From an uncultured delta proteobacterium (GTDB taxonomy: Bacteria; Desulfobacterota; Syntrophobacteria; BM002): a stretch of DNA of 64,000 bases. The notes below the pieces were generated by a model. It did not search any database and was not told the DNA's origin. It saw nothing but the letters and a program-made list of their open reading frames with translations. Made by a program: the position numbers and the translations under genes. The stretch is taken from positions 294,438 through 358,437 of the forward strand of contig CAVQGX010000031.1 in NCBI GenBank assembly GCA_963712115.1, read 5' to 3'. This document shows positions 6,298-60,856 of this stretch, piece by piece; position 1 is the stretch's first letter, and the number at the start of each line of letters is the position of its first letter.

Positions 6298-6535
6298 TTT
6301 GGCCACTAGAGGTGGCCGTCATAACGCTGCGCTGTCATTATGCCTTCGGCGTCATTTATGTCATTAGGTCAAGTATCGCTTCGCTGTCTCCATGCTCGTC
6401 CCCATGCGGGTAACCTAATGACGGCCGCGAGGCCAAATGACGGGCTTCAGCCCAAATGACGCCGAAGGCAAATGACCATTAATGACGGGCGCCAGCCCTA
6501 TTGACGGCGCAGCCGAATGACGCGGAGCAAATGAC
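6298..6535. repeat. Modular GTCA/TGAC mini-hairpin array, copy 1
   Basis: Left arm of gtcat units, right arm of aatgac units separated by GGCCGCGAGGCC, GGGCTTCAGCCC, GCCGAAGGC, GGGCGCCAGCCC, GGCGCAGCC, GCGGAGC. Confidence 0.9.
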
Positions 6536-6553
6536 CTGTTAGTGCCTAGTGTA

Positions 6554-6943
6554 TTACTCTTCGTGCCCCAGGAGCTTCATGCGGAAACTGGCTGCCTCCT
6601 GTCTTTTAAGATCCAGTTCTTGCCACTCTTCCCGCAATGTCGCCATTAGCTGCCTCTGTTCCAGCCATAGCGCTTGGTCATTGCTGACTCTGTCGCTTTC
6701 TTGCCCTTCTCTGGGGGCCTGGAAGCCATTTTTGCCTTCAATTTCCTTTAGTCGTTTCTTTACCGCGGCCACCTCTGCCTTCACTTCTCTCATCCGCGCC
6801 AGTATTGCTTCCTCATCGCGGGTTAAAGGCACGTAGTTCCCCTCGCATTCATCTTTTTTGTCGAAATATTGGTGACAAGCTGTGCAAGATTCGCCATTCT
6901 CAGTCACAGAAATGGTGCCATTTTTCTTGACGTCACTACTCAT
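6554..6943 (-). CDS. Hypothetical coiled-coil protein with an N-terminal CxxCH motif
   Basis: 129-aa ORF with RBS GGAGGG; CTACH; helical C-terminus ending LLGHEE. Confidence 0.7.
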   Translation of the reverse strand: MSSDVKKNGTISVTENGESCTACHQYFDKKDECEGNYVPLTRDEEAILARMREVKAEVAAVKKRLKEIEGKNGFQAPREGQESDRVSNDQALWLEQRQLMATLREEWQELDLKRQEAASFRMKLLGHEE

Positions 6944-6977
6944 TAAAATCCCTCCCTATCTAGAGCGCCCATGGCGT

Positions 6978-7134
6978 AAATACCAATATCGAATATCGAA
7001 ATACGAAACAAATCCGAAATTCTAATTTCCAAATGCTCAAAACAACTTCCGGAAAAATTGACGATCAGGTTTTGGTCATTTGAGTTTTGAAAATTCGAAT
7101 TTGTTTAGGATTTAGTGCTTGGGATTTCGGATTT
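6978..7134. repeat. AT-rich inverted-arm element (AAATCCGAAAT...ATTTCGGATTT family), copy 1
   Basis: Arms are imperfect reverse complements; homologous to 21379-21538. Confidence 0.85.
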
Positions 7135-7227
7135 CAGGCTTTCGCTAATTACACTTCCCATATCATCAGCACTTGATCAATCCCTATTGGTAATATAGTA
7201 ACACCATAGATATTTTGCAAACACCCC

Positions 7228-7258
7228 AAAAAAAAGACCCGGCCCATTGGGCCGGGTC
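7228..7258 (-). terminator. Rho-independent terminator after qmoC
   Basis: GACCCGGCCC-loop-GGGCCGGGTC followed by a T8 tract on the minus strand. Confidence 0.85.
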
Positions 7259-7283
7259 GTGCATTACGGGATGACTGTTGGAA

Positions 7284-8645
7284 TTACTCTTTCTTCTCCT
7301 CTTCCTCTTCAGCCGGTTTCTCTTCTTCAGCTTCCGCCGGAGCTTCAGCTGCATTTTCCGCCTCTTCTGCGACCTCTTCGGCGGCGGCTTCTTCAGCTAC
7401 CGGTTCTTCCACAGCCGGAGCAACCACAGCGGCTGGAGCTGCCACCGGGGCAGCCGCAACTACCTCCACTCCAAAGGGACGATTGATGTAAGCCGCATAG
7501 CCCATGGCCACCGTCCGGTAGACCAAGTGGGCCAGCTTGCTATAGGGCAGATAACCGATAATGTAAAAAACGCACACCAGGTGGATGAAGTAGATGAAGT
7601 AAGCGAACCAGCCAGCGTCTGCCACCCGAGAAAGCCAAGTCAAAAAGCCGGTGACCACAATGCCCAGGATGGCAAGAATTAGAGACCAATCCAGGTAGGT
7701 TGTAGTGCTCTCAGCACCCTTGTCTTTGTAGCGGTTTGAGATCACCAGAGCGATGCCTATGAGCAGGGCCGACCCCGAAGCCAAGGCGAGCAACTTCACC
7801 GGGTTGATAAGACTGTAGGGAGGTGCCAAAAAGTCAACCCGGACAATGTAGAGGGCGAGAAAGCCTATGTTGGTCACAATGAACAAACCAATGAAGCCCA
7901 GGAAAACCAGAAGGTGTGATTGATAGCGATCCCGGTTGGTAATGCACAGCTTGAACTTGTCGTGAAAGAGAATGGTGGGAATCGCCGAGATCAGGCTCTT
8001 TACATAGTCTGCCATAACCAAAGGCTTGTCTTCCGCATAACCCTCCCTGATGGAATTGGTGTGGATGCCCTGGAGGAAGTTCCACACTCCGAAACCCAGA
8101 GAGACTGCGGCCAAGGCCGTGAAGGTAATGAAGATTACATCCACCAAGTAGAGGGGGAAGAACTCCCGCAATTCTACCGGCCCTTCAGGAATGTGAAGAT
8201 GCCCGGTCATCAGGAGTCCCAACAAGAGGACCACCACCGGAATGGCCAGCATGATTGGCCAATACTTCGCCTCACCCACGACTTTCCCCATGAAGTTGGG
8301 AAAGGCAAAATGCCTGAAGCTCATGGCTCGAATTGCCCGCAGAGTGTCTCCGGGACGGGCACCTCTGGGGCAGTGGGCGGAACAGTCATTGCAGTAGTGG
8401 CAAAGCCAGACATCAACACTGTTAACCAGTCTGTCCTTGAGGCCCCACTGTGAATAGATCATCTCTTTCCGTGGATAAGGTTTTTGCTCAGGAGCAAGCT
8501 CGCAAACCACCGAGCAGGTGGCACACTGAAAGCACTTTTTTAGTGTGTCTCCCCCTGCCGCTTTGAGTTCCCGAACGAAATCCAGATCGGGCTCCACCAG
8601 GGTCGCAGCTTTGCTCTCTACTTGCACTGCGGATTCCTCTGCCAT
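7284..8645 (-). CDS. qmoC: Quinone-interacting membrane oxidoreductase subunit C (HdrC/HdrE-like)
   Basis: CFQCATCSVVC and CHYCNDCSAHCP Fe-S motifs, multiple TM helices, LPYSKLAH; follows qmoB. Confidence 0.95.
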   Translation of the reverse strand: MAEESAVQVESKAATLVEPDLDFVRELKAAGGDTLKKCFQCATCSVVCELAPEQKPYPRKEMIYSQWGLKDRLVNSVDVWLCHYCNDCSAHCPRGARPGDTLRAIRAMSFRHFAFPNFMGKVVGEAKYWPIMLAIPVVVLLLGLLMTGHLHIPEGPVELREFFPLYLVDVIFITFTALAAVSLGFGVWNFLQGIHTNSIREGYAEDKPLVMADYVKSLISAIPTILFHDKFKLCITNRDRYQSHLLVFLGFIGLFIVTNIGFLALYIVRVDFLAPPYSLINPVKLLALASGSALLIGIALVISNRYKDKGAESTTTYLDWSLILAILGIVVTGFLTWLSRVADAGWFAYFIYFIHLVCVFYIIGYLPYSKLAHLVYRTVAMGYAAYINRPFGVEVVAAAPVAAPAAVVAPAVEEPVAEEAAAEEVAEEAENAAEAPAEAEEEKPAEEEEEKKE

Positions 8646-8657
8646 GTTATCTACCTC

Positions 8658-10895: not shown

Positions 10896-10899
10896 CGGA

Positions 10900-12162
10900 T
10901 TACCTCCTCACCGTAGATTGAATGGCTTTGAGCGCTGCAGCAGTTGCATCCCGGTTGGCAGTTGCCACATCTAGCGGCTTTCTGGTGCATCCAGCAGCAT
11001 AGATCCCAGGTTTTTCACTGACAACAAAGCCGCTTTCGTCGTAGGCTACATCAGTTGGCACCTTAGCGGTGGCTGTACTGGGCTCCATGCCAGTGGCCAG
11101 CACCACCAGATCCACCTTTGCCTGGCTCTTGCTACCGCCGTAAATGTCTTCGGCCGTTACCACGATCTTGTCGCTGGCCGGATCTGCCTCAACCTTGGCA
11201 ACCTTTCCCTTGATGAGGGTGACATTATCTTCAGCTGCAACTTTGGTGTAAAACTCCTCATATTTGCCCAAAGCTCGAATATCAATGTAGAAGATGGTAA
11301 CCTTGGCATCGGGGAGCTGCTCCCTGATGTAAGTGGTCTGCTTCAGCGATGCCAAGCAGCAAATGTGAGAGCAAAAGGCCATGTAGTTCTCGTCCCGCGA
11401 GCCGGCGCACTGCACAAAGGCAACGCTTTCCACCGGCTTGCCATCGGCGGGGCGGACGATCTTCCCTTTGGTGGGACCATCAAAGGCTGCCAGCCGCTCC
11501 ATCATCACGTTGGTGATCACATTGGGGACCTTGCCGAATCCCAGATTCTCTATCTTGCTGGCATCGTAAGGATTCCAACCAGTGGCCCAGACAATGGACG
11601 CCACTTTGAGGCTCACGCTCTCAGGCTGCATCTCCAAATCCACCGCGTCGTACTTACAGGCCTCTTTGGCCTTGGTTGCCTCGTCCGTACCGATTATCTC
11701 CGGGGCAATCACATAGCGCATGGGGTAAGCCATGTCGTGGGGGAGATAGGCGGCTTTGATCTTGTCCATGTTGTAATTGTAATCGTTTGGAATTTCCGTG
11801 GTGACCACCTCAGCGCAGGCTCCACATGCAGTACAGTTCTCATTCACGTACCGCGGCTTGAGTTTGATGGTCACATCTAAGTTTCCTTCCTCTCCGGATA
11901 TACTTTCCACCTCAGCCATGGTGAAAGTCTTTATCCGGGGATTCTGTCTTATGCGACGGAAGTTGATTTCCAAGCCGCAATTGGGCGGGCAGAGTTTGGG
12001 AAAGTATTGGTTCAACTGCGCCACCCGACCGCCAAGGTACGGCCGCTTTTCAACAATAAAAACATCGCGGCCCGTCTCGGCCGCCTCCACCGCTGTGGTC
12101 AGGCCGCTGATGCCGCCGCCGACCACCAGGATACTTTGGGTCAAACCTTTTTCCTCAGCCAT
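10900..12162 (-). CDS. qmoA: QmoA (HdrA-like flavoprotein)
   Basis: ILVVGGGISG, YFPKLCPPNCGLEIN, VQCAGSRD. Confidence 0.96.
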   Translation of the reverse strand: MAEEKGLTQSILVVGGGISGLTTAVEAAETGRDVFIVEKRPYLGGRVAQLNQYFPKLCPPNCGLEINFRRIRQNPRIKTFTMAEVESISGEEGNLDVTIKLKPRYVNENCTACGACAEVVTTEIPNDYNYNMDKIKAAYLPHDMAYPMRYVIAPEIIGTDEATKAKEACKYDAVDLEMQPESVSLKVASIVWATGWNPYDASKIENLGFGKVPNVITNVMMERLAAFDGPTKGKIVRPADGKPVESVAFVQCAGSRDENYMAFCSHICCLASLKQTTYIREQLPDAKVTIFYIDIRALGKYEEFYTKVAAEDNVTLIKGKVAKVEADPASDKIVVTAEDIYGGSKSQAKVDLVVLATGMEPSTATAKVPTDVAYDESGFVVSEKPGIYAAGCTRKPLDVATANRDATAAALKAIQSTVRR

Positions 12163-12522: not shown

Positions 12523-12559
12523 AAAATTGCTCCAGGCGCCCGCTCGGCGCCTGGAGCAG
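12523..12559 (-). terminator. Hairpin terminator or attenuator after aprA
   Basis: TGCTCCAGGCGCC-loop-GGCGCCTGGAGCA followed by ATTTT on the minus strand. Confidence 0.7.
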
Positions 12560-17177: not shown

Positions 17178-17185
17178 GACGAGAG

Positions 17186-18196: not shown

Positions 18197-18293
18197 GTCA
18201 TTTGCTCCGCGTCATTTGGGCTGACGCCCGTCATTCGGCCTTACGGCCGTCATTATGTTGTTACAATGAATGACCATGAATGACAGCGGAGTG
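18197..18293. repeat. Modular GTCA/TGAC mini-hairpin array, copy 2 (short)
   Basis: gtcattt GCTCCGC gtcattt GGGCTGACGCCC gtcattc GGCCTTACGGCC gtcatt ... aatgac catg aatgac. Confidence 0.85.
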
Positions 18294-18367
18294 GAACTAG
18301 GGACCCGCTTGCGGGCCTGAGCGGAGGGAAGCGAGGGCAAAGAAATGAAAAATGGGAAATTAGAATT

Positions 18368-18486
18368 GTGCCTAGTGCTTAGTGCATAGTGCCTAGTGTA
18401 GTGCTGCCTGTTGCAATCTGCCTGCTGACCTCTGACCTCCGATCTCTGCCTTCTCACCCTATGCTCTATGCCCTATGCTCCATGCC
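18368..18486. repeat. Stacked heptamer tandems (TAGTGCC, TCTGACC, TATGCYC)
   Basis: gtgccta gtgctta gtgcata gtgccta; ctgacct ctgacct ccgatct; ctatgct ctatgcc ctatgct ccatgc. Confidence 0.8.
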
Positions 18487-24344: not shown

Positions 24345-24611
24345 TCAGTTGTCCGTAGTCCGTTGTCAGTTGCTCAAAACGTTGAAACCGTTTAAATAAC
24401 TTCAAATTGGATATGAGATGTGAGATCTGAGATGTGGGGTGCTAAATCTCCGGGTAAATGTTGAATCTCACATCACACATCACACATCGCACATCTGCTC
24501 CTTTGGATTTTGCTTTTTTTAAATCCGAAATCCGCAATCCGAAATCCGCAATGCCCTTCCATGCTCCATGCGGCGAACGGAGTGAGCAACAACGAACCAC
24601 GGACTACTGAC
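24345..24611. repeat. Nested heptamer composite (outer TCCGTWG arms, inner TGAGATG/CACATCA arms, AATCCGC run)
   Basis: Inner ~150 bp recurs inverted at 44331-44477. Confidence 0.85.
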
Positions 24612-27113: not shown

Positions 27114-27629
27114 ATGAAGCGGATCACCCTAGTAACTGGAGGCAGTCGAAGCGGCAAGAGCAAAATTGCCTTGAACCTTGCTGCTCCATACGTAAATAAG
27201 GCTTTCATCGCTACCGCTGAAGCAACCGATGATGAGATGCTGGCTCGCATTGAACGCCATCGCCGCGAACGTGATTCATCATACTTAACCGTGGAGGAAC
27301 CGGTTAACCTGGACATGGCTTTAAAATCTTTGCCAGAAAAGACGGAGGTGGCGGTTCTTGACTGTATAACAGTTTGGCTTGGCAACCTCTTTTATCGAGA
27401 GAGAATAATTGATGGAGCTTGCCCAGAAATAAATGGGTTTTTGGACATTCTTGACTCCCCACCTTGTCACCTCATCCTTGTAACAAATGAAATTGGCATG
27501 GGCGTTATCCCCGCGGACTCGGCCACTCGTCACTTCCGCGACATAGCGGGCAGTCTTAACCAGCAGCTTGCCGAACGAGCCCATGAGGTTATTTTGTCGG
27601 TCAGTGGGATTCCCCTCCGAGTCAAATGA
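27114..27629 (+). CDS. cobU: Adenosylcobinamide kinase / cobinamide-phosphate guanylyltransferase
   Basis: LVTGGSRSGKS, IATA..D.EM..RI..H, VTNEIGMG. Confidence 0.95.
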   Translation: MKRITLVTGGSRSGKSKIALNLAAPYVNKAFIATAEATDDEMLARIERHRRERDSSYLTVEEPVNLDMALKSLPEKTEVAVLDCITVWLGNLFYRERIIDGACPEINGFLDILDSPPCHLILVTNEIGMGVIPADSATRHFRDIAGSLNQQLAERAHEVILSVSGIPLRVK

Positions 27630-27721
27630 ACTAAAATGATCTAAAATGCCTAAAGTGCCTAAAGTTAGAAAACAAGTGGAGCACCATTTGAGTGGCACGG
27701 TGTGGATTACAGCTGCTCATT

Positions 27722-27863
27722 GTCATTTGGCCACTAGACGTGGCCGTCATTACGCTTCGCTGTCAATATGCCTTCGGCGTCATTTATTGTCATCTGTTTC
27801 AACAACCTAATGACGGGCGGCAGCCCTATTGACGGCGAAGCCAAGTGACGCGAAGCATATGAC
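27722..27863. repeat. Modular GTCA/TGAC mini-hairpin array, copy 3
   Basis: gtcattt GGCCACTAGACGTGGCC gtcatta cGCTTCGCt gtcaata tGCCTTCGGC ... tgac GGGCGGCAGCCC ta ttgac GGCGAAGCC aa gtgac GCGAAGC at atgac. Confidence 0.9.
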
Positions 27864-27913
27864 TACAAAGTGCCTAGTAGAAATGTCTGCCAGCTGGGTA
27901 GATGGAGTGAACT

Positions 27914-28990
27914 GTGGAAAGACTTTTACCTACACTTGATGCGATTACTCCTGTTGACCGGAGTCTGGAAGCCGAAGTTCGTGCCCATCTAGACAACCTT
28001 ACGAAACCTCTTGGCAGTCTAGGGTTCCTGGAAGACCTGGCTGCCAACTATTGTTTAATAACCGGGACGAGCACCCCACAATTGGGCAAGAAGCGTATAG
28101 TGACCTTTGCCGGTGACCACTCCGTTGCAGCGGAAGGGGTTTCCGCCTATCCCAGTGAGGTCACACCTCAGATGGTTTACAACATGCTTGCTGGTGGGGC
28201 AGCCATCAATGTATTAGCCAAGCACGTGGGGGCCGACCTACAGGTAGTTGACATAGGGGTAGCTGACCCCCTAGAGGCTGCATCTGGTATACTGCGTCGG
28301 AAGGTGAAGCCGGGTACTGATAATATGAGCAGAGGACCGGCCATGACCAAAGAGGAGGCCATCCAGGGGATCCTGGTTGGGGTGGAGCTGGCCCATGCTG
28401 CTGCTGACGAAGGCGTCACCTTGATCGGCACTGGCGAAATGGGGATCGCCAACACAACCCCTTCCTCGGCGCTCTATGCCTCCCTCATTCCCTGCCCGGT
28501 GGTAGAGGTAACCGGGCGAGGTACGGGAATCGACGACAGCAGGCTCCAGCACAAGATCAAAGTCATTGAGCGTAGCCTCGAGGTTAATGCGCCCAGGCTC
28601 AATGATCCCCTCTCGACTCTTGCGGCTGTCGGTGGTTTGGAAATCGCCGGGATCTGTGGACTCATTTTGGCTGCGGCCGGGCGGAGATTGCCTGTAGTTG
28701 TCGACGGTTTTATCTCCTCAGCTGCTGCTCTTGTGGCCATGAGGCTAAAAGAGTCAGTAATCGATTACCTTTTTTTTAGCCACTGCTCAGCTGAGGCCGG
28801 CCACCGCACCTTTTTCGAGCGCTTGGGGATTCGACCCATACTCGATCTCGACCTGAGGTTAGGCGAGGGAACTGGTGCCGCTCTGGCCATGCACGTAATC
28901 GAAGGGGCGGTGAAAATATACAACGAAATGGCAACTTTCGACTCTGCCGGCGTCAGTGGCAAAGGAATAAGGAGTGGTGACTGGCGGTGA
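27914..28990 (+). CDS. cobT: Nicotinate-nucleotide-dimethylbenzimidazole phosphoribosyltransferase
   Basis: [33 protein letters not shown]. Confidence 0.96.
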
Positions 28991-29026
28991 TTACGTCGAA
29001 ACCCTATTTCTTTTTCATGGGCACCG

Positions 29027-29228
29027 GTCATTTGCTTCGCGTCACTTGGCTAAGCCGTCAATAGGGCTGGCGCCCGTCATATTTGTCATTTGGTTTCACC
29101 TATTAATTATCACTGATCTTGACGACCTGTTGACAACAAATGACAGCGGAGCGTAATGACAGCCACTTTAGTGGCATAATGACTACCTTATGACAGCGAA
29201 CTGACGGCCACGGAAGTGGCCAAATGAC
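29027..29228. repeat. Modular GTCA/TGAC mini-hairpin array, copy 4
   Basis: Same modules in opposite orientation to copies 1 and 3; central spacer shared with copy 8. Confidence 0.9.
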
Positions 29229-29282
29229 CCAATAACTGCGCACTGCTGGATACCAGGTATATAAGGAAATTGAGAGAGTTAC

Positions 29283-30062
29283 ATGCTCCGTGGACTGATT
29301 ACTGCCTTTCGGACCCTGACCATCTTTCCTATCCCTGGGCAAGATGCGCCAAAGCACAGCAACTCTCTACCTTTTTTCCCGGTGGTAGGATTTGCCTTAG
29401 GACTGCTCCTCTGGCTTGTGAGTCTCATTGACAGACTCATTAGCGGCAGCGGTTGGCCCATGGGCATCGCAGCGCTAATGCTCCTGGCAAACATCATAAG
29501 CACAAGAGCTCTTCATTTGGACGGTTTAGCGGATTTTGCCGATGCTCTTGGTGGTGGCTGGGATAAAGCAAGGCGTCTTGAGATCATGAAAGACACTCGC
29601 CTCGGGGTCTTCGGTGGGGTGGCTGTTATTATTGCTTTGCTTTGCAAGTGGCTTGCCTTTTCCAGGTTGGTATCAGTGGGCAGCACCGTCTGGGTCATCC
29701 TGCTCTTCATGATTGCCCGGACAATGCAGGTCCACTTAGCAGTACGACTAGACTACGCCAGAGTTGAGGGTGGCACGGCTTCTTCTTTTGTTCAGGGGGC
29801 TTCCGCCTATCACTTTGGCGCAGCCTATATGATCACCCTGGTAGCAGCTCTTGTTTTTGGCCCCTTTGGTTTGGCGGCTCTGGCTGTGGCCGCAATAATA
29901 ACCTGGGTCTATGGAGCTTGGTGTCGCAAGAACATCGGTGGCATAACCGGCGACCTGCTTGGCGCAGGGAATGAAATAATCGAGGTTGCCCTCCTCTTGT
30001 TGGCAGCCGCACCTGGCTCCCTCCTCCTTGGCCATACTGGCTGGGGGTGGCTAATTCATTAG
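29283..30062 (+). CDS. cobS: Adenosylcobinamide-GDP ribazoletransferase (cobalamin synthase)
   Basis: LHLDGLADFAD, LEIMKD.RLG.FG, GGITGD.LGA. Confidence 0.95.
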   Translation: MLRGLITAFRTLTIFPIPGQDAPKHSNSLPFFPVVGFALGLLLWLVSLIDRLISGSGWPMGIAALMLLANIISTRALHLDGLADFADALGGGWDKARRLEIMKDTRLGVFGGVAVIIALLCKWLAFSRLVSVGSTVWVILLFMIARTMQVHLAVRLDYARVEGGTASSFVQGASAYHFGAAYMITLVAALVFGPFGLAALAVAAIITWVYGAWCRKNIGGITGDLLGAGNEIIEVALLLLAAAPGSLLLGHTGWGWLIH

Positions 30063-30090
30063 GGCGAAACATCGCTCAAGGATTCATCCA

Positions 30091-30220
30091 GTCATTTGCC
30101 TTCGGCGTCATTTGGGCTGGCGCCCGTCATTAGGCCTTACGGCCGTCATTAGGTCGTTACAACAAATGACCATAAATGACAGCGTAGCGTACTGACGGCC
30201 ACATCTAGTGGCTAAGTGAC
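30091..30220. repeat. Modular GTCA/TGAC mini-hairpin array, copy 5
   Basis: gtcattt GCCTTCGGC gtcattt GGGCTGGCGCCC gtcatta GGCCTTACGGCC ... tgac a GCGTAGC gtac tgac GGCCACATCTAGTGGC. Confidence 0.9.
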
Positions 30221-30252
30221 TATAAGTGATCAACTAGAAGAACCGAGAGACT

Positions 30253-31344
30253 ATGGTGAGCGACGAACACATCCACGGCGGTGATCCGGAAAGGGAATTA
30301 AAGAGGCTGGGGCTTGCCCCTCGCCGAGTTCTGGATTTCAGTGTCAACGTCAGTCCCCTGGGCGTTCCAGAAGAGATTAAAAATATATGGAACGATCTTT
30401 TTAGAGAGATTGAAAGCTATCCCACTGTGGATGGCCGGGGAGTCGTTCACTATTATGAGAAACGCTTCGGTCTTGATCCTGCCCGGATTTTGGCAGGTAA
30501 CGGTTCCACCGAATCTATTTACCTGGCACCACGCGGTTTGGGCTTGCGGAAGGTGGTGGTAATCAATCCCTCCTTCCATGACTACACCAGAGCCAGCCTG
30601 GCGGCCGGGGCAGAATTGATCCCGGTGGAGCTCAAGGCCACTGCCGGGTTTGCCCCCCCGGATATGTCAGTTTTAGAAGAGGCGCTGGCCGGCAGCGACG
30701 GTCTATTTGTCGGCAACCCCAATAATCCTACAGGCACGGTTTTCCCCCGGCAGCTGTTGCTTGATCTAGCAGCGACTTTTCCCAGAAAGTGGCTGCTAGT
30801 TGACGAGGCCTTTGTTCAGTTTCTCGACCGACCTGATGAGACTAGCTTAATCAAGGAACAGCCACCACCGGCCAATATCCTTGTCTTTCACTCTCTCACC
30901 AAATTTTTTGCCCTTCCGGGTCTCAGGTTGGGTGCAGTAGTCGGCCATCCGGATGTTATCTCTCGTCTTCGTCAACTCAAAGAACCTTGGAGTGTCAACC
31001 GCATAGCCGAAAAAGTGGCACTGAAATTGATTGATTGCGCCGATTACGAGAAGAAGTTGACAAACCTTATTCGGAGAGAGCGGCCTAGGGTTTTTGCCAG
31101 GCTAAATAAGATCGCCGGGTTTCAACCTTTTGAACCTGCAGCTAATTTCCTCCTCGCACGGTGGACGCAAACAGACGAATTGGATGATTTTCTGCTCTTC
31201 ATGATGCGCTCAGGAATTCACCTTCGAGACTGCCGCAACTTTCCAGGACTGGAGGACAATTTTTTCCGCATGGCTATTCGCCAACCGGAAGAAAATGATC
31301 AGGTCCTCTCACTTATGCAAGACTGTGCTGCCCATTTTTTATGA
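30253..31344 (+). CDS. cobD: L-threonine-O-3-phosphate decarboxylase
   Basis: HGGD, DFSVNVSPLG, NPNNPTG, DEAF, SLTKFFALPGLRLG; cob cluster context. Confidence 0.88.
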   Translation: MVSDEHIHGGDPERELKRLGLAPRRVLDFSVNVSPLGVPEEIKNIWNDLFREIESYPTVDGRGVVHYYEKRFGLDPARILAGNGSTESIYLAPRGLGLRKVVVINPSFHDYTRASLAAGAELIPVELKATAGFAPPDMSVLEEALAGSDGLFVGNPNNPTGTVFPRQLLLDLAATFPRKWLLVDEAFVQFLDRPDETSLIKEQPPPANILVFHSLTKFFALPGLRLGAVVGHPDVISRLRQLKEPWSVNRIAEKVALKLIDCADYEKKLTNLIRRERPRVFARLNKIAGFQPFEPAANFLLARWTQTDELDDFLLFMMRSGIHLRDCRNFPGLEDNFFRMAIRQPEENDQVLSLMQDCAAHFL

Positions 31345-34603: not shown

Positions 34604-34686
34604 TTTCAGGAGTTTAGGTGTCAGGTTTCAGGTGTCAGGAGAGAAAACAGAAAGGCTGAAACCTGAACACTGAAACCTGAAACCTC
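34604..34686. repeat. Inverted heptamer arms GGTKTCA / TGAAACC, copy 2 (inside the pst operon)
   Basis: aggtgtcaggtttcaggtgtcagg ... ctgaaacctgaacactgaaacctgaaacct. Confidence 0.85.
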
Positions 34687-45663: not shown

Positions 45664-45938
45664 GTCATTACGCTCAGCGCGGTTGCGCTTCGCTGTCACT
45701 AGGCTTCGCCGTCATCAGGCCTCGCGGCCGTCATTTGTGGTCATGTGCCTTCGGCGTCATTCGGGCTAGCGCCCGTCATGCATGGTCATTTGTCGTTATT
45801 TGTTCTATTCATTATCACCAATCATCACGACTTAATGACAACAAATGACAGCGAAGCGTAATGACAGCCACTTTAGTGGCATAATGACTACCTAATGACA
45901 TCAGTGCATTATGACGGCCACATTAGTGGCCAAATGAT
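45664..45938. repeat. Modular GTCA/TGAC mini-hairpin array, copy 6 (longest)
   Basis: Multiple gtca units then multiple tgac units separated by the same hairpin modules; sits between permease and ATPase. Confidence 0.9.
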
Positions 45939-50387: not shown

Positions 50388-50474
50388 TTCGAGACCTCGC
50401 AAGTTCATCAAACCCTTATTACCATCATTTTTTTCCTTGATTTTCTTTAGGCGCCGTAGTAGGAAGGATCAAAC

Positions 50475-50640
50475 AACTGGGTACCCCTTCGGGTTTAATA
50501 GGGAATCCCGTGCAAATCGGGAGCGGTCCCGCCGCTGTATTCGAGGACGAAAGCCGCAATTGAGCCACTGTCTAATCGAAGTTAGATGGGAAGGCGCGGT
50601 GAGTAGGATGATCCGAGAGCCAGAATACCTGCCCAGGTGC
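50475..50640 (+). ncRNA. Cobalamin (B12) riboswitch
   Basis: AATAGGGAATCCCGTGCAAATCGGGAGCGGTCCCGCCGCTGT, GCCACTG...GGGAAGGC, B12 box GAGCCAGAATACCTGCC. Confidence 0.93.
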
Positions 50641-50705
50641 CAGTCGAGTAGGCCACGTGGAAATGGCTGAAATCGACAATCCTTAAGGACCAAGAAACTG
50701 GGTGC

Positions 50706-54625: not shown

Positions 54626-54740
54626 GTGGGGCAGGCGTCCCTGCCAGCCATATCAGAGGGGAAAAAAGAATCGTTAGGGCAGGCCGGTGTTCATGTCTTT
54701 AAGTGGGCAAGGAGAAATACAGCAGGCAGCCATTTGAAAC

Positions 54741-55069
54741 CAGGCACTAAGCAGTAGGCACTAGGCACTACTAAGACTGAGACCACTTTAAGTCATTATA
54801 CTACGCTTTGACTCAAGGTCATTTGGCCACTAAATGCGGCCGTCATTACGCTTCGCTGTCAATATGCCTTCGGCGTCATGTATGGTCATAAGGGTAGTAC
54901 GCTATGCTGGCCACTCATAGTTAACTGTCATTGTGGCTTCGGAACAATTTAATGACGGGCGCCAGGCCTAGTGACGGCGGAGTTAAATGACGCAGAGCAA
55001 ATGACATGACTTGCCGGTGCCTAGTGCATAGTTCCTAGTGCCTAGTACGCCATGCGCTCTGCGCTATGC
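54741..55069. repeat. Modular GTCA/TGAC array copy 7 (54792-55010) nested inside ACTAGGC/GCCTAGT heptamer arms
   Basis: caggcactaagcagtaggcactaggcacta ... array ... gtgcctagtgcatagttcctagtgcctagt. Confidence 0.88.
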
Positions 55070-55075
55070 TGATTT

Positions 55076-55267
55076 ACCCTAATGTTGCAGACCCATTCCG
55101 AGGAAAAACACGCAAGAGTGCGCCAGATGTGGCTGCGCACAGGCTCGGATAGGTCGAGGCGTACTTGACCGTACGTCAAGCCCTGTCCGAGGCGAGCACA
55201 GCTGCAGATGGCGTGCTATCGCGCGAGCGCAGCGGTTTTGGCCGGTCTGGGTTTGCAACATTAGGGT
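55076..55267. mobile_element. 192-bp MITE-like element, copy A
   Basis: TIR ACCCTAATGTTGCAGACCCA / TGGGTTTGCAACATTAGGGT. Confidence 0.8.
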
Positions 55268-56734
55268 TTACATTGAAGCAGCTTGATTAGATTCTTGCGG
55301 GAGCTTGAGCTTGACGATCTCAGCCAACTCGGTGGGTTTTTCAATAGTTTCATCGATGGCCTGAAGAAGGATTCGATAGTAAGTTTTTATACGGTTTACA
55401 TATCTCACCGGTTCGGTTCCCCTGGCATATCCGTGAGGCAGGCTTCGGTAGTATTTCTTCTGCCGTAACAAAGGTAGAGCAGCACTCACATCCTGCCAGT
55501 TGTCCGGATCTTTATCCAACCGTTTTGCCAATCCTCTGGCGTCCTCTAAGTGCCCCCAGCCTACATTGTAAGCTGCCAGAGCCATATAAGTCCTGTCTGG
55601 TTCGGGAACAGTATTGCCGATCCTTTCGTGCAGCAGAGCTAAGTAGCGAGCTCCACCTTCAATAGATTGACGGGGGTCCAGCCTGCTCTCTACCCCCAGA
55701 CTTTCAGCAGTGTCCTGCGTGAGCATCATTAAACCTCTGACTCCAGTAAAGCTTACCGCTTGGGGATCCCAATGGGATTCCTGATATGATTGCGCTGCCA
55801 CCAGCTTCCAATCCAAGCCGTGTTTTTTTGCTGCTGTCTTAAAGTAACTTTTGTACATGGGCAGACGATGCCTTAGCCTGCGGTGATACTGGACCAGATC
55901 AACATAATCAAAGACTTTGAGGTGCCCATAATAATGTTGCTTCAATTTCTGCAGCTGAGCAGAGGTTGATGGTTGGGCAAACCAGTGCTCAACGGCAGCC
56001 AAGAGATGATGGTGCTGCGGATGCACGGCCCAGGCAAGTTGTTCAGCTTCTTGAATCGCAAAGTGAATCCTGAGTTGCGGATAATAACGCCGATTCACCG
56101 CAACAATGTTTGAGTCGGCTATGGTAAGTGGAATTATGCCTCGCCAGACCATCTCCAGGATTTCCTCGGTCTCATAGCCAGAAACCGGCAGCCAGGACAG
56201 GCCGGGATATTGAGGTTTTAGCTCCTTTAGCCTCTCTTCATAGGAGGTGCCGGCATTTACCCATAAGGGCTGGCCAATGAGATCTCCTACATCGCTAGGT
56301 GACGGGCCGCCCCGGCGGCCCACCACTTGCTGCTGGACCTCCATATAGGGAGGACCAAATGCTACTCTTCGCATGCGGTTCTCTGTAACGGTAAAGCCTG
56401 CGGCAATTAGATCTGCTTCGCCTCGAAGTAGTGCGGGAATCATCTCATTGAAATTGTCGGTGACAACGCATTTCAGCTTCACACCCAGATGATCAGCAAA
56501 GCTTTTCACCAGATCGTATTCAAAGCCAGCAAATCCCTGAGGTCCCTCGAAGTAACAGGTGGCATTGTTTCGAATAAGCACTCGAAGGGTACCCCTGTCT
56601 TTTATAGTATCCAACTCATCTCTGGGACCCAACTGGTTACAGCCGGTGCCAGCTAGGAGAATTAGACAGAGGGTGAACGAGCTCAGCAGTTTCATCCAGG
56701 TGAGAATAAATCTGTTTTGGCCAGATCCTGTCAT
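55268..56734 (-). CDS. mltF: Membrane-bound lytic murein transglycosylase F
   Basis: SBP_bac_3 N-domain (GFEYDL..FA) plus SLT domain (YQESHW, GVRGLMMLT, AAYNVG.GH..DAR, GYARG.EP); start uncertain. Confidence 0.93.
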   Translation of the reverse strand: MTGSGQNRFILTWMKLLSSFTLCLILLAGTGCNQLGPRDELDTIKDRGTLRVLIRNNATCYFEGPQGFAGFEYDLVKSFADHLGVKLKCVVTDNFNEMIPALLRGEADLIAAGFTVTENRMRRVAFGPPYMEVQQQVVGRRGGPSPSDVGDLIGQPLWVNAGTSYEERLKELKPQYPGLSWLPVSGYETEEILEMVWRGIIPLTIADSNIVAVNRRYYPQLRIHFAIQEAEQLAWAVHPQHHHLLAAVEHWFAQPSTSAQLQKLKQHYYGHLKVFDYVDLVQYHRRLRHRLPMYKSYFKTAAKKHGLDWKLVAAQSYQESHWDPQAVSFTGVRGLMMLTQDTAESLGVESRLDPRQSIEGGARYLALLHERIGNTVPEPDRTYMALAAYNVGWGHLEDARGLAKRLDKDPDNWQDVSAALPLLRQKKYYRSLPHGYARGTEPVRYVNRIKTYYRILLQAIDETIEKPTELAEIVKLKLPQESNQAASM

Positions 56735-57140
56735 TATTTTATCTTCTGAATCCCCTTTGATAAATGACCCCTGCCCTGATATTGAAGTTACCTTCCAGGC
56801 TACATGGGTCAGAGCCAATTACCATACTTGGGTGTTTCCCCAATAGAGCAAAATCCGTACCTTTTCATCCAATTAGCTCTTTGCTAGACCCGTTCCGTCC
56901 TGTTTTTTCAACGGCCACTTGGTTTTGCAGATCGAGGGAAGACTCAGATAATGCTTCTTTCGAAATTTGTCAAGACCTCAGCCGGAGTAAGCGGCCAGTT
57001 GTGACCTCCCTTGGCATTGCCTGCATAAATATTATATTTTCACATGGTTATGCCTGCAAACAAAGAGAGTATCTCCATTCTTCCCAAGTGTACGAGAGTA
57101 TACCATTAATTACTCCAGGAAAACAAACCGAGGCTCACTT

Positions 57141-57332
57141 ACCCTAATGTTGAAGACCCACTCCGAGGAAAAACGCGTTAGAGGGCGGCAGATGTGGCCG
57201 AGCGCAGACTCGGGCAGGATGAACAGTACTTTACCGTACGTGAGATCCTGGCCGAGGCGAGCAGGGTCGCAGATGCCGTTCTATCAAGCGAGCGGAGCGA
57301 TTTTTACCGGTTTGGGTTTGCAGCATTAGGGT
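57141..57332. mobile_element. 192-bp MITE-like element, copy B (direct orientation to copy A)
   Basis: ACCCTAATGTTGAAGACCCA ... TGGGTTTGCAGCATTAGGGT. Confidence 0.8.
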
Positions 57333-57446
57333 TAACCAGTTTCCATCCGGAACCAAAGATTTCCGGCTGGAGCTGTCAGTGTTCAGCAGTCAGCTTTAAT
57401 TATTGGATTTATTTAGATTTAGCTGAAAACTGAAGGCTGATGGCGC

Positions 57447-58799
57447 TCATCCTAAAACCTTTGTTTTCGGATGAGCACTAACCAGCATCACTCGAAGATC
57501 CATTACGTTGGTATTGGTGGGGCCAGTAATCAGCAGGTCGTCCAGGTGTTGAAAAAAGTGATAAGAGTCGTTTTCTTCAAGGAACTCTCTGGGATTGAGA
57601 CCCTTAGCCAGGGCTCTTGCTACGGTATCGCCATCCACCACTGCACCCGCAGCATCGGTGGGCCCGTCTGTGCCGTCCGTGCCACCGCTGAGAAGGCAGA
57701 CACCCTTAAGTCCCTCGAGATCCAAAGCGGCCGCCAGGGAAAACTCCAAGTTTCGTCCACCCTTACCCTTGCCGCGTACCACTACCGTGGTCTCTCCCCC
57801 TGAAATCAGACAGGCAGGTGGACTAACGGGGTGGCCGCTTTGAACAATTTCCTTAAGCAGGGCGCTATGAAAACCTGCCGCCTCCGTGGTGTCACCCTCG
57901 ATCATTGTAGAAAGAATGAGGGTTTGGTAACCGAGCTTCTGTGCCTTTGCTGCGGCAGCCTTTAGCGCCTGCAAATTGTTGCCTACCAGAGTAGTATAAC
58001 TGTTGGAGAATATTAGATCATTTGGTTTAGGTGTCTCTGGGACTTCTCCTTTCATTCCGGCTTCCAAGTAAGATCTAACTGATGGAGGCAACTTCTCTCC
58101 GAGAGAATAACGGTCTAACACTGCTCTGCAATCCTCGAATGTACTCGGATCCCCCACGGTTGGCCCGGAAGCAATGACATCGAGGGGATCGCCCACAACA
58201 TCTGAGAGAACAAGGGAGACAAGGGTTGCCGGATTAGCCAGTCTCGCCAGCTGTCCCCCTTTGATTTGGGAGAGGTGTTTTCTAATGGTGTTCATCTCCT
58301 CAATGGAGGCGCCGGACTTTAAAAGGAGATTGGTGGTGGTCATTTTCTCTTCCAGGGTGATACCCTCAACCGGCATGGGAAGTAAGGCTGAGCCGCCCCC
58401 AGATAGTAGGAACAGCACCAAGTCTTTTCGGCCCATCTTCGCCAGCAGATCTGCCAGTTCCCTGGTAGCTCGCCAGCCATTTTCGTCGGGGGTTGGATGG
58501 CCTGCCTCCTCAAGGCGGATTTTCTGCAGGGGTGCCAGATAACCGTACTTAACGATAACCAGCCCTCCCTTCACCAGGTTCCCGAGGATTTCTTCCACTG
58601 CCTGAGCCATAGCGGCTGAACCTTTACCCGCGCCTATGGCCCAAACGTGGCTGAATTCATTCAGATCAAATTTTTTCTCTCCGATTTCAAGAATATTTCC
58701 CTCTAAAGCCACGAACCTCTTCACTGCCTCTTTCGGATCCACAGCTCTCAATCCAGCTTCAAAGATTTGTTGAGCCTCTGCTTTGAGATCTCTTGCCAT
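57447..58799 (-). CDS. Glycerate 2-kinase (class II, DUF4147/MOFRL)
   Basis: GAGK, GHP.PD, SGGGSAL, IASGPT, GGETTV, GTDGTDGP, TGPTNTNVMD. ATG is the reverse complement of CAT at 58797-58799, so the gene is on the minus strand despite the + label in the ORF track. Confidence 0.93.
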   Translation of the reverse strand: MARDLKAEAQQIFEAGLRAVDPKEAVKRFVALEGNILEIGEKKFDLNEFSHVWAIGAGKGSAAMAQAVEEILGNLVKGGLVIVKYGYLAPLQKIRLEEAGHPTPDENGWRATRELADLLAKMGRKDLVLFLLSGGGSALLPMPVEGITLEEKMTTTNLLLKSGASIEEMNTIRKHLSQIKGGQLARLANPATLVSLVLSDVVGDPLDVIASGPTVGDPSTFEDCRAVLDRYSLGEKLPPSVRSYLEAGMKGEVPETPKPNDLIFSNSYTTLVGNNLQALKAAAAKAQKLGYQTLILSTMIEGDTTEAAGFHSALLKEIVQSGHPVSPPACLISGGETTVVVRGKGKGGRNLEFSLAAALDLEGLKGVCLLSGGTDGTDGPTDAAGAVVDGDTVARALAKGLNPREFLEENDSYHFFQHLDDLLITGPTNTNVMDLRVMLVSAHPKTKVLG

Positions 58800-58883
58800 A
58801 ACGAGCTCCTTAACAGCCTAACTCGGTTAGATTTTTGCCAACACCAGAGTTGTCTTATCTCAACACCCCGTGCTCCATCTCTC

Positions 58884-59003
58884 TTCGCTATGCGCTCTGC
58901 GCTGTGCGACCTCGGTGCCTAGTGCCTACTGCCTAGTTCAAATGGCTGCCCGCTGCCTGCTGTATTTCTCCATGCCCCATGCTCCATGCCCTATGCCCTA
59001 TGC
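58884..59003. repeat. Stacked heptamer tandems (TGCGCTM, TGCCTAS, ATGCYCY); partly an inverted copy of 54705-54770
   Basis: gtgcctagtgcctactgcctagttcaaatggctgcc...ctgctgtatttctcc matches the reverse complement of ggagaaatacagcaggcagccatttgaa. Confidence 0.8.
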
Positions 59004-59107
59004 AACAAACAATCTGCAATTGACAGTGCTCGCTTCTGCCAAGTAGAATCATCCATGTCGGCGCAATCATTTATCCTTTTGGAAAGAGGTTTTGGAGGTA
59101 TTTGAAT

Positions 59108-59521
59108 ATGGAGAATTGCATCTTTTGTAAGATCGTTCGCGGGGAGATCCCTTCAGCAAAGGTACTGGAAAACGAAAAGTTATTAGCATTTCTGGACATC
59201 AATCCGGTTAGCAAGGGGCACACGCTGGTAATTCCCAAGGCCCACTATGCCGCCTACGCGGAAATACCTGTAGATGTTCTCGCTGCAATGGGCGAGGCCT
59301 TGCAAAAAATTGGCAGGGCAGTCAAATCCCAACTTGATTTCGCCGGCTTTAACATTCTGCTCAATAATGACCGGGCGGCAGGCCAGCTCATCGATCACTC
59401 TCATTTCCACCTGATTCCAAGAAATATCGGGGATGGAGTGATGGACTGGCCTCCGGTTCGTCCGTACGCAGAAGGTGAAATGGAAACCATCCGCGCAGTG
59501 CTGTCTAATGCGGTGTCATAA
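59108..59521 (+). CDS. HIT-family nucleotide hydrolase
   Basis: CIFCKIV.GEIP, GHTLVIPK, HSHFHLIP; upstream TTGACA-18-TAGAAT. Confidence 0.93.
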   Translation: MENCIFCKIVRGEIPSAKVLENEKLLAFLDINPVSKGHTLVIPKAHYAAYAEIPVDVLAAMGEALQKIGRAVKSQLDFAGFNILLNNDRAAGQLIDHSHFHLIPRNIGDGVMDWPPVRPYAEGEMETIRAVLSNAVS

Positions 59522-59541
59522 CAGGCGCACGACGCCATTGG

Positions 59542-59772
59542 GTCATTACGCTCAGCGCTATTGCGCTTCGCTGTCACTGGGCTCCGCCGTCAATAGGGCT
59601 GGCGCCCGTCATTGTTGTCATTTGTGGTTATTTCACCTATTAATTATCACCGATCTTAACGACCTGTTGACAACAAATGACAGCGGAGCGTACTGACCTA
59701 ATGACCATAAGTGACGCCGAAGGCATACTGACAGCGAAGCGTATTGACGGCCACGTCTCGTGGCCAAATGAC
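59542..59772. repeat. Modular GTCA/TGAC mini-hairpin array, copy 8
   Basis: Same modules; ends GGCCACGTCTCGTGGCC aaatgac. Confidence 0.9.
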
Positions 59773-59788
59773 CGCAAAAGTCTCACGG

Positions 59789-60616
59789 TTAAGTTCTGTA
59801 CTTACTAGGTAAGGAAAGGTACCTTTCGCCTTCCTGGACTCTGCCCCGTTTGACACAGCCCTGCCCGTAAATCTCACACTTCCGGCGGAGTACCCTCCAG
59901 GCCCATCTGTACTGATCGGTCGAGAGTCTACCGCTTTTTAAAAGTTTCTCCAAAGCCTTGATTCTATACCGATCTATACCACTTCTGGCAGACAACTGAT
60001 CTGAGTGGCCACCCCGCTTGATCACCAGTGGATGAGGCAGCAACGGTACTGGATATTCCACTGAAACTCGCAGCCACAAGTCATAGTCCTCAGCAGCAGG
60101 CAAATCCTCGTCAAAATAGCCCACCTTTTCCAAAAGCGAAGCCTTCAACATCACCGCTGAAGGGCTGACTAAGCAGAGATGCAGGCTCCGTCGAAAAATG
60201 TCCCCCGATGGCTTTCGATGGTGTTTTTTTGGATTCACCTGCCGGTTATTTCTCCACCAGATCTCTTCTGTCTGGCAAATGTGAACCTCCGGATGCTCCA
60301 TCATGTAGTTATGTTGAAGGTGCAATTTAGATGGGAGCCACAGGTCATCAGAATCCAAGAAAGCAACCAGTGGGGCGGTGGAAAACTCAAGTCCACGATT
60401 TCGCGCAGCGCTTACTCCCGCATTTTCCTGCTGGCAATATTTGAGACGGGAGCCAAAAATAGATAGTCTTTCCTCCGTTTCGTCGGTGGAGCCATCGTCA
60501 ACCACAATGAGCTCAAAATCCGTCATTTCCTGGGCCAGAACTGATTCCACCGCTTCCGTCACCATGGCGGCCCGATTGAAGGTGGTGATTATAACCGATA
60601 CTTGAGGTAGCATCAT
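59789..60616 (-). CDS. Glycosyltransferase family 2
   Basis: VSVIITTFNR, VVDDGSTD, SAARN.G, FLDSDD, EDYDLWLR. Confidence 0.93.
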   Translation of the reverse strand: MMLPQVSVIITTFNRAAMVTEAVESVLAQEMTDFELIVVDDGSTDETEERLSIFGSRLKYCQQENAGVSAARNRGLEFSTAPLVAFLDSDDLWLPSKLHLQHNYMMEHPEVHICQTEEIWWRNNRQVNPKKHHRKPSGDIFRRSLHLCLVSPSAVMLKASLLEKVGYFDEDLPAAEDYDLWLRVSVEYPVPLLPHPLVIKRGGHSDQLSARSGIDRYRIKALEKLLKSGRLSTDQYRWAWRVLRRKCEIYGQGCVKRGRVQEGERYLSLPSKYRT

Positions 60617-60652
60617 TTACAGAGCTAAAAGCACAGGACACAAGATTATTAG

Positions 60653-60856
60653 GTCATTACGCTCCGCGCTATTGCGCTCTGCTGTCACTAAGCTCCGCCG
60701 TCATTAGGGCTGGCGCCCGTCATTAAGTTGTCTCAACGCCACAATGACAGTTAACTATGAATGACAGCGGAGCGCAGTGACCCATTTACCATAAATGACG
60801 CCGAAGGCATATTGACAGCGAAGCGTAGTGACGGCCACGTCTAGTGGCCAAATGAC
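60653..60856. repeat. Modular GTCA/TGAC mini-hairpin array, copy 9
   Basis: Same modules; spacer acaatgacagttaactatga is the reverse complement of the copy 7 spacer. Confidence 0.9.

Follow-up and report, generated by a model that had tools for sequence, protein, structure and literature searches.

Among described bacterial repeats, the closest in logic to those reported here appear, by analogy, to be the mosaics of repetitive extragenic palindromes (REPs) known as bacterial interspersed mosaic elements (BIMEs), the mosaic regions of Neisseria and, from general background, the short tandemly repeated repetitive (STRR) and small dispersed repeat (SDR) sequences of cyanobacteria and the BOX elements of pneumococci. 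As described for enterobacteria and pseudomonads, REPs are small G/C-rich palindromes found in high copy number in intergenic DNA (Di Nocera 2013), where they build composite mosaics, often within operons and between convergent genes, and where copies in opposite orientation adjoin and can fold alone or together (Nunvar 2010; Di Nocera 2013). The dRS3 units of Neisseria are likewise described as clustered in mosaics interleaved with other repeats (Di Nocera 2013). These traits recur in a 64,000-nt stretch of DNA (hereafter, the window) from an uncultured delta proteobacterium (assembly GCA_963712115.1, contig CAVQGX010000031.1), which carries nine intergenic elements built of minute G/C hairpins alternating with TGAC tetranucleotides. 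The window is part of a 4.9-Mb metagenome-assembled genome (MAG) of 70 contigs, with 48.9% G+C and 6% contamination. These TGAC mini-hairpin arrays are a real, genus-wide repeat family, and we lean towards regarding them as a new variety of REP/BIME-like intergenic repeat that is restricted to the genus.

The preliminary description of the window had listed nine elements with left arms of GTCAWTW units, right arms of WAWTGAC units and small G/C palindromes in between. Direct reading of all nine sites found them where it had placed them (Table 1), with the arm units as described, all palindrome types of its list present, and the GGCCAC-N4-5-GTGGCC module on the left in copies 1, 3 and 7, on the right in copies 4, 5, 6, 8 and 9 and absent from copy 2; in copy 7 this terminal module is degenerate (one stem mismatch). 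Family modules of the form TGAC-hairpin-TGAC number 43 in the window and 0 in every one of 200 dinucleotide-preserving shuffles of it. The generic arrangement of TGAC, perfect palindrome and TGAC was observed 29 times, against a shuffle mean of 0.46 and a maximum of 4, and clusters of at least four TGACs (gaps of at most 34) 17 times, against a mean of 0.46 and a maximum of 2. That the arrays could be products of chance, low-complexity sequence or faulty assembly, a concern raised by the fragmented and partly contaminated MAG and by contigs that end inside elements, is refuted by these shuffles, by the recurrence of the same modules in 14 further genomes of the genus that were assembled independently (none with the reversed control), and by orthologous copies with conserved flanks; moreover, the region is present in public DNA runs, and we give such a reading practically no weight.

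Genome-wide, 212 arms with at least one hairpin module make up 51 two-armed elements and 110 single arms, and 410 modules have TGAC on both sides. Module a (AGCGNAGCGT) alone occurs 170 times, 147 of them between two TGACs, and the terminal module (TGAC-GGCCAC-N4-5-GTGGCCAA) has 22 copies in the source genome (G000; relatives within the genus are coded likewise, such as G005 and G014). The terminal module also occurs in 14 of the 17 other genomes of the genus, in none of the 4 genomes from the other genera of the family and in none of the 19 from the rest of the class, and a control with the pattern written backwards gave 0 across all 41 genomes. Among 185,579 species, each represented by one genome, it was found in 55 stretches, all within 12 MAGs labelled Deltaproteobacteria, Desulfobacteraceae, Syntrophobacterales or Desulfobacterota. 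The family avoids genes: only 6 of the 212 arms lie inside crude open reading frames (ORFs), though such ORFs cover 79% of the genome. Of the spacers, those with arrays number 89 of 2471 between co-directional genes, 32 of 542 between convergent and 22 of 547 between divergent ones. Being numerous, intergenic and capable of forming stem-loops, the arrays are REPs in the general sense of the term. At the gathering threshold, an Rfam search of the whole window returned nothing on the elements, its sole match being a cobalamin riboswitch (107 bits) upstream of small ORFs; the window also has cobalamin-synthesis genes. At E<=1, positions 27600-30300 gave 0 rows and positions 59400-61000 gave 2 rows at chance level, scoring 18.8 and 18.3 bits where the cut-offs are 84 and 37.5. 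Literature searches, with supplements outside their scope, found no description of a TGAC mini-hairpin family.

Read 5' to 3' outward from the centre, each arm unit consists of TGAC, a hairpin and a 3-4-nt A/T linker, with stems of 2-6 bp and whole modules of 10-24 nt. The preliminary description had the modules as interchangeable and differing between copies in number and order; their number does vary, whereas their order is mostly fixed: a single order accounts for 290 of 336 module pairs (0.863), a share that averaged 0.60 and never exceeded 0.68 when modules were shuffled 1000 times within arms. Arms come in two types, A (a.. b a (t) T) and B (e f c d or e f (c) Z), and 44 of the 51 two-armed elements are A/B heterodimers, the others comprising 1 A/A, 1 B/B and 5 of ambiguous type. 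The arms meet at one of three kinds of core, of which one is a short palindrome (GTCATTAGGTTGTTACAACAAATGAC) and the other two are longer. About 80 of the single arms are A-like (a. c or a. b) and are placed after a conserved leader (TACCTNTTACAANNAATGACAGCG, 54 occurrences). Orientation is uniform within an arm and switches once, at the centre, and in none of 414 modules is the loop reversed relative to TGAC. Copy 2, for all its missing terminal module, is no special type: it has a B arm and a centre, and its A arm is curtailed by a nested repeat of about 50 nt.

Table 1. Elements, modules and other features of the window (arm composition in module letters; core types are those of the elements)
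Feature	Coordinates	Strand	Parser arms	Composition	Remarks
Copy 1	6298-6535		6318-6371/6419-6535	left A (..b a T, outward, from 6298), centre, right B (e f b. f c d)	45-nt tandem block in B arm
Copy 2	18197-18297		18197-18252	B arm (e f d), palindromic core, A-arm start TGAC CATGAA TGAC AGCGGAG
Nested ~50-nt repeat	18296-18345	+		CTAGGGACCCGCTTGCGGGCCTGAGCGG...	curtails copy 2 A arm
Copy 3	27722-27863		27722-27792/27811-27863	left A (. b a T), short core, right B (f c d)	between unnamed gene and cobT
Copy 4	29027-29228		29027-29088/29120-29228	left B (. f c-like d), long core type C3, right A (.. a t.. T)	between cobT and cobS
Copy 5	30091-30220		30091-30148/30167-30220	left B (e f b), short palindromic core GTCGTTACAAC, right A (. 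a T)	between cobS and aminotransferase gene
Copy 6	45664-45928		45664-45788/45836-45915	left B (. f b. e c Z), core C3, right A (. a t. ? T)	45-nt tandem block in B arm; final A-arm TGAC decayed to TGAT
Copy 7	54792-55010		54792-54888/54953-55010	left A (T, a, b), enlarged centre, right B (f-like, c-like, d)
GTGCCTA heptamer tandem array	55017-55046	+			adjoins B-arm end of copy 7
Copy 8	59542-59772		59515-59620/59668-59772	left B (. f c Z), core C3, right A (. a.. b a T)
Copy 9	60653-60856		60653-60722/60745-60856	left B (f c-like Z), core C2, right A (a. b a T)
Module a				A-GC-GNA-GC-GT
Module b				GCC-GNA-GGC
Module c				GGC-GNA-GCC
Module d				GC-GNA-GC
Module e				GGCC-N4-GGCC
Module f				GGGC-N4-GCCC
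Module t / T				(A/G)GCCAC-N4-5-GTGGC(C)
Module Z				AGCGAAGCGC-N4-GCGCGRAGYGT	compound, terminal
Spacer				CTAA, CATAAA	without hairpin
Period-45 repeat, copy 1	6436-6521			1.9 copies, 80% matches	Tandem Repeats Finder
Period-45 repeat, copy 6	45704-45789			1.9 copies, 78% matches	Tandem Repeats Finder
Period-19 repeats	6417-6476, 18210-18254, 30106-30153				Tandem Repeats Finder
B-arm ends with flanking sequence	6536-6560, 27864-27880, 55011-55046				examples
Other heptamer arrays	1078-1108, 18368-18398, 24410-24552, 34656-34685, 54742-54770, 58970-59003				examples
Dispersed repeat of ~190 nt	55070-55275				beside copy 7
Cobalamin riboswitch	50462-50650
ORF	60903-62735	-		IspH/LytB domain joined to UbiA prenyltransferase domain

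The arms are degenerate tandem arrays with blocks of 19 and 45 nt, which Tandem Repeats Finder detects in the window with both periods. Within the 45-nt blocks, module b aligns with c and f with e, and the members of each pair differ by one base-pair swap that preserves pairing (GGC/GCC versus GCC/GGC, and GGCC/GGCC versus GGGC/GCCC). Local duplication explains such blocks. Isolated modules are rare (6 of 410) and all lie in decayed arrays; thus, there is no sign of single modules inserting at ordinary TGAC sites, and module-by-module insertion at bare TGAC was rejected on these grounds. The preliminary description had suggested a mobilisation or array-building system acting in trans. That such a system adds modules singly is not supported, given the largely fixed order, the scarcity of isolated modules, the tandem blocks and the fact that no Y1 or REP-associated tyrosine transposase (RAYT) gene of the genome has TGAC hairpins as its own ends. 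The sole candidate for an insertable module is the repeat of about 50 nt nested in copy 2 (CTGGGAACCCGCTTGCGGG...; ACTGGGAACCCGCTTGCGGGMCTGAGCGGAGCGCAGCGAGCGCGAA), which has 15 copies in the genome, 11 of them with a TGAC no more than 40 nt upstream. Those 11 are embedded in TGAC arrays, each precisely at the boundary of a linker and the TGAC that follows it, and the other 4 lie elsewhere; apart from the window, sites include contigs C3, C14, C22, C26, C39, C51 and others of the source genome.

Other short repeats surround the elements. Heptamer arrays pervade the genome, with 727 of 1828 kept Tandem Repeats Finder rows of period 7 and 305 more of period 14, the commonest units being ACTAGGC/GCCTAGT, ACCTCTG and AAATCCG, and they are laid out as two inverted arms in several of the relatives' spacers. 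That the elements are nested at the centre of inverted heptamer arrays was considered and rejected, as 2 of 50 fitted and controls averaged 1.66. GTGCC(T/C)AGTG heptamers often come within 6-8 nt after a B-arm terminus (for Z ends in 8 of 16 cases, for d ends in 4 of 13), unlike at the A-arm (T) end, whose flanks are variable; a heptamer array may therefore belong to the composite unit on one side. The dispersed repeat beside copy 7 has several matches elsewhere in G002, G006 and G007, with 87-90% identity.

The hairpins themselves mostly follow one rule. A C:G closing pair precedes a G..A loop in 382 of 414 cases on the TGAC strand, and the complementary form, T..C, is never seen there. In sequence terms, this bears out the resemblance to single-stranded DNA hairpins noted in the preliminary description, as these 382 loops fit the GCGNAGC/GCGNNAGC mini-hairpin rule, and cores of the GCGAAGC, GCGGAGC and CCGAAGG types occur literally in the arrays. 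According to a 2026 review, such mini-hairpins are far more stable in DNA than in their RNA counterparts, bind single-stranded DNA-binding protein (SSB) poorly, and occur at the single-strand priming sites of phage G4 (origin) and RSF1010 (ssiA) and in the promoters of phage N4. The same C:G closing pair with a G-N-A or G-N-N-A loop is described for those sites, which are single functional sites on phage or plasmid strands, whereas here there are hundreds in chromosomal arrays. When folded as DNA, copy 5 (z = -2.8) forms mostly local hairpins, and copy 3 (z = -6.4 to -6.7) shows partial pairing of arm to arm.

Stems vary far less than loops. Entropy is 0-0.3 bits at stem positions and 1.1-1.9 bits at the middle loop base. 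Similarly, in 19 pairs of orthologous modules from relatives whose flanking genes have 70-91% DNA identity, differences affect 6 of 128 stem positions, 8 of 20 loop middles, 5 of 30 loop ends and 18 of 76 linker positions (stems versus loop middles and linkers, Fisher p = 3.4e-6), and four loops have altered length. Among 93 instances of the terminal module, 81 are unchanged, 3 carry a G.T pair, 2 a compensatory change and 7 a mismatch; with so many unchanged, classical covariation is thin in so invariant a module.

Relatives compared at orthologous sites differ both in the presence or absence of elements and at the level of modules, the kinds of difference for which the preliminary description had called. 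In the cobalamin operon (genes of CobT type, for CobS and for an aminotransferase), the three spacers are highly dissimilar from one relative to another, with 17 compared. Elements are present in the cobT-cobS and cobS-aminotransferase spacers of G005 and G014, and in the latter spacer of G010; copy 4 is orthologous to the elements of G005 and G014, and copy 5 to those of G005, G014 and G010. In these elements the outer modules and flanks match those of the source genome, while the interiors differ. The closer relatives G002, G006, G007 and G012 have heptamer-repeat arrays in the cobalamin spacers instead, and in the spacer before cobT, the site of copy 3, the source genome alone has an element when set beside the 17 relatives. 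The sites of copies 6, 8 and 9 are likewise occupied in G014. At the copy 6 site its element retains Z and c on one side, with a and t opposite, round a different type of core, its element at the copy 8 site lies in the opposite orientation, and at the copy 9 site the same A arm stands alone behind a 'solo' leader. The ortholog of copy 7 in G006 (flanks of 87-89% identity) reads T a. core e f Z, compared with T a b. long centre f c d in the window, and the GTGCCTA flank is common to both. Additionally, a junction from 28962 to 29281 with 150 other letters occurs in RNA-library contigs of two studies, and junctions from 30022 to 30265 and from 27630 to 27938 occur likewise in public-run contigs, which hints at alternative spacer alleles in very close strains. 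The flanks of the listed copies show no target-site duplication, and the orthologous sites compared include no clean empty site. Collectively, the site patterns fit long residence, loss or duplication of blocks, exchange or inversion of interiors, and replacement by other arrays, by a mechanism that we infer from them.

The same history bears on a second explanation, namely that the arrays are REPIN- or IS200/IS605-like miniature mobile elements, in which a trans-acting HUH/Y1 enzyme would, at the replication fork, recognise the hairpin with its TGAC foot in single-stranded form and move whole elements or blocks of modules. In its favour are elements that reappear at identical sites in distant relatives though not in near ones, and the lack of target-site duplication noted above, and a tetranucleotide beside a small hairpin is the recognition logic described for REPIN/RAYT, IS608 and ISDra2 (lagging-strand targeting). 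A search with PF01797 (Y1_Tnp) found four Y1 genes in the genome, one of them 185 bp from an element. Each of the four, however, ends in hairpins of another kind. Two belong to copies of one IS200-like element, whose hairpins are of the CCCCGCAGCTTGCTGCGGGG type. A third, RAYT-like and 171 aa long (C20:238180-238446), is flanked by GGGCGGGG..CCCCGCCC palindromes that carry GTAG and not TGAC units. The fourth, on contig C56, encodes an IS200-type protein of 149 aa, has its own hairpins, lies downstream of the nearby element and is situated at a contig end. At E<=1e-20, a C56-type protein was absent from 14 of the 17 genus genomes, including the element-rich G005, G014 and G007, and the other 3 have only distant relatives of it (38-43% identity). 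A cognate Y1 enzyme was rejected for these two reasons. Nor did the neighbourhood of the elements point to a partner: when 268 neighbouring ORFs were clustered, just two groups had more than three members (17 and 7), and the one window member scanned from each was a histidine kinase and an ABC ATPase, respectively, so that a recurrent neighbour gene was rejected in turn, only ordinary paralogue groups standing beside the elements. Together with the rarity of isolated modules, these results make a mobile origin of this kind unlikely in our view.

The Y1 genes have repeats of their own that deserve mention. The RAYT-like gene and the inverted GGGCGGGG(A/T)TAAACCCCGCCC palindromes, a form with 5 exact copies in the source genome, are a classical REP/RAYT pair that is not related to the TGAC arrays. 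Similar RAYT-like REP palindromes lie in spacers of G009, G011 and G012 (L089, L096 and L110), and G012 has a similar RAYT-like gene with its REPs at the copy 7 site. The two IS200-like copies (C64:8012-8374 and C48:16547-16906) have a right end hairpin, CCCTGCAGCTTGCTGCAGG, followed by GTCATTCATTC; the string GTCATTCAT found there also comes after the hairpins on the GTCA strand of the arrays, which may be coincidence.

A third explanation is that the arrays act as RNA, being transcribed with their neighbours so that the hairpin stacks would serve as 3'-end protectors, attenuators or processing sites, as has been proposed for REPs. Many copies do lie inside operons or between convergent genes, such as those between the cobT, cobS and cobD-like genes; the loops of module e are mostly GNRA (24 of 34; GTAA, GCAA, GTGA, GAAA and GCGA); and the two-armed design would give a hairpin array to transcripts of either direction. 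RNA-library contigs of two studies also cover genes and bridge the cobT-cobS spacer of a sister allele, although such contigs can show neither that the source allele is transcribed nor where RNA ends lie. Set against these points are the absence of U-runs after the hairpins at the nine sites, the lack of any Rfam match for the elements in the window and the loops themselves, as C:G-closed G-N-A and GNNA loops (GCCA, GCTA) follow the DNA mini-hairpin rule and their RNA versions are much less stable according to the 2026 review. Of the 86 A-like arrays with both neighbours called, 39 are on the same strand as the upstream gene and 47 on the opposite one; one-armed arrays thus show no preference for gene orientation. 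On balance, a function as RNA seems improbable.

Orientation relative to GC skew gives a different picture. Of the 80 A-like arrays without a partner arm, 57 have their TGAC strand on the side that is locally C-rich and 23 on the G-rich one, as judged from the GC skew of 15-kb flanks with the element excluded (p = 2e-4; 51:20 after removal of near-duplicates). Arrays that neighbour one another at a distance of 1-30 kb mostly point the same way (35 pairs versus 8), also where gene direction changes. One-armed a.c and a.b arrays are concentrated on contigs C38, C14, C36 and C18 (11, 7, 6 and 6 copies), nearly all co-oriented there, and in three single-contig MAGs array orientations are mixed, although these MAGs are 62-88% complete and their order may not be real. 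Skew correlates with gene strand (r = 0.65 over 124 windows), so the G-rich strand is probably the leading strand and the strand with G..A loops would accordingly be the leading-strand template. Biased and co-oriented one-armed arrays could also be expected of mobile elements that target the fork, yet if the G-rich strand leads, the G..A-loop strand is not the lagging-strand template. These orientations, together with the loop rule, make single-stranded DNA the likely level of action, rather than an oriented RNA signal.

We propose the following account of the family. The unit is TGAC, a G/C mini-hairpin with a C:G closing pair and a G..A loop, and an A/T-rich linker of 3-4 nt. Arms would be made and remodelled in place, through duplication and loss of blocks of one to three units between TGAC direct repeats. 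A whole element has two differing arms, A (a-(.)-(.)-b-a-T) and B (e-f-c-d or e-f-c-Z), set head to head round a short palindromic core, an arrangement by which each strand reads TGAC-hairpin units outward. Elements would then reside long in intergenic DNA, their outer modules and flanks staying while the interior is exchanged or the element inverted, probably via recombination or template switching between inverted TGAC/GTCA repeats, and whole elements would sometimes be replaced by other short-repeat arrays. Stems may be kept by selection or by hairpin-templated correction.

Several observations weigh against this account. The more distant G014 and G005 have elements at sites that lack them in the nearest relatives, G002, G007 and G012, which requires either that elements were lost or replaced several times over or that they were inserted more than once at identical sites; the latter would favour a targeted mobile element. 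How elements spread to new sites we can only infer. The sample of orthologous module pairs is small and its kin are not independent, covariation within one module type is weak, and stem conservation could reflect young copies combined with hypermutable loops. Two-armed elements show no skew bias (26:18, p = 0.29), the assignment of the leading strand is a probable one drawn from the correlation between skew and gene strand, and the gene calls were crude ORFs.

A bolder extension of the same account, which we consider very doubtful, is that the arrays are working single-strand DNA devices with replication-fork polarity and not selfish or neutral repeats, read by a putative genus-specific enzyme or replisome factor that would also drive their duplication. 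If so, fork-oriented stacks of exceptionally stable, SSB-resistant C(GNA)G hairpins, each on a TGAC foot, could for instance signal priming or re-start, make forks pause or serve as landing pads, and the arrays would constitute a chromosomal, arrayed counterpart of the single-strand initiation hairpins of phages and plasmids.

Viewed as a new variety of REP/BIME-like repeat, the family departs from its described counterparts in several respects. Its stems of 2-6 bp compare with REPs of 20-40 bp and its foot is TGAC instead of GTAG; the arrays thus have neither the GTAG foot on a 20-40-bp imperfect palindrome nor the cognate, usually single-copy RAYT gene, flanked by the same REPs, that mark GTAG-type REPs. 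BIMEs, as described by Nunvar (2010), consist of regularly spaced REPs that alternate in orientation at every unit, whereas the units here run head to tail with a single central switch, and comprise several distinct hairpin types in near-fixed order. REPINs, with their RAYT transposase, resemble the elements in having two inverted halves round a spacer, in occurring also as single halves and, as far as described, in persisting long within a narrow clade. A REPIN is defined by two inverted copies of one REP that fold together into a single long hairpin; of the elements folded here, copy 3 does pair arm to arm, and copy 5 mostly makes local hairpins. Each half here, however, holds 2-8 hairpins and not one REP, the two halves differ (44/51 A/B), and the RAYT-like gene of the source genome is flanked by another REP type.

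The CGTC-tagged REP super-family, to which the dRS3 repeats of Neisseria belong, offers a further parallel, since GACG, the complement of CGTC, stands at the foot of modules b-f and T, and since that super-family is likewise described as having no known dedicated transposase (Di Nocera 2013). Its families 1-4 are described with an unpaired tag, an 8-9-bp stem that opens with two A/T pairs, a 4-5-nt loop and a CCA-like tail (Di Nocera 2013), whereas the stems here are of G/C only and 2-6 bp, the loops are mostly of 3-4 nt and G..A, the tails are A/T-rich (WWW), and the last G of GACG is already paired; the arrays therefore belong to none of these four families. Miniature IS200/IS605 derivatives would carry subterminal hairpins like those of a resident insertion sequence (IS) with its TnpA; the resident IS200-like hairpins differ from the modules, and by this measure the arrays do not qualify.

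Terminal inverted repeats are typical of DDE-type MITEs (inverted-repeat transposable elements of miniature size). The arrays do end in GTCATTT...AAATGAC, but with no target-site duplication visible in the listed flanks they do not qualify as such. Pneumococcal BOX elements are composite intergenic repeats in which a variable number of internal tandem modules lies between conserved ends, and the heptamer tandem arrays of the source genome resemble the STRR repeats of heterocystous cyanobacteria. A MITE of Porphyromonas gingivalis that contains a minisatellite is described as similarly composite and intergenic, with a variable internal tandem array between conserved ends. Both this MITE and BOX have one array in one orientation, in contrast to the two opposed mini-hairpin arrays, without detectable target-site duplication, found here. 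The cyanobacterial STRR/SDR repeats, for which Elhai et al. (2008) is cited, share with the source genome the many heptamer tandem arrays, the embedded small hairpin repeats and the occurrence of repeats within repeats, and differ in phylum and in sequence.

The TGAC arrays are a structurally distinct addition to the REP/BIME/REPIN repertoire, in the form of opposed, ordered arrays of minimal hairpins in an uncultured, sulfate-reducer-type genus of Desulfobacterota whose intergenic DNA is unusually rich in short tandem repeats. In practical terms, assemblies break at these elements, and the elements flag hypervariable intergenic slots of use in strain typing. That the one-armed arrays are oriented by skew and not by genes makes a replication-linked role testable, given a closed genome or a culture. 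As the family, like the CGTC-type REPs, has no apparent transposase partner, it may help to explain how such repeats originate and persist without one.

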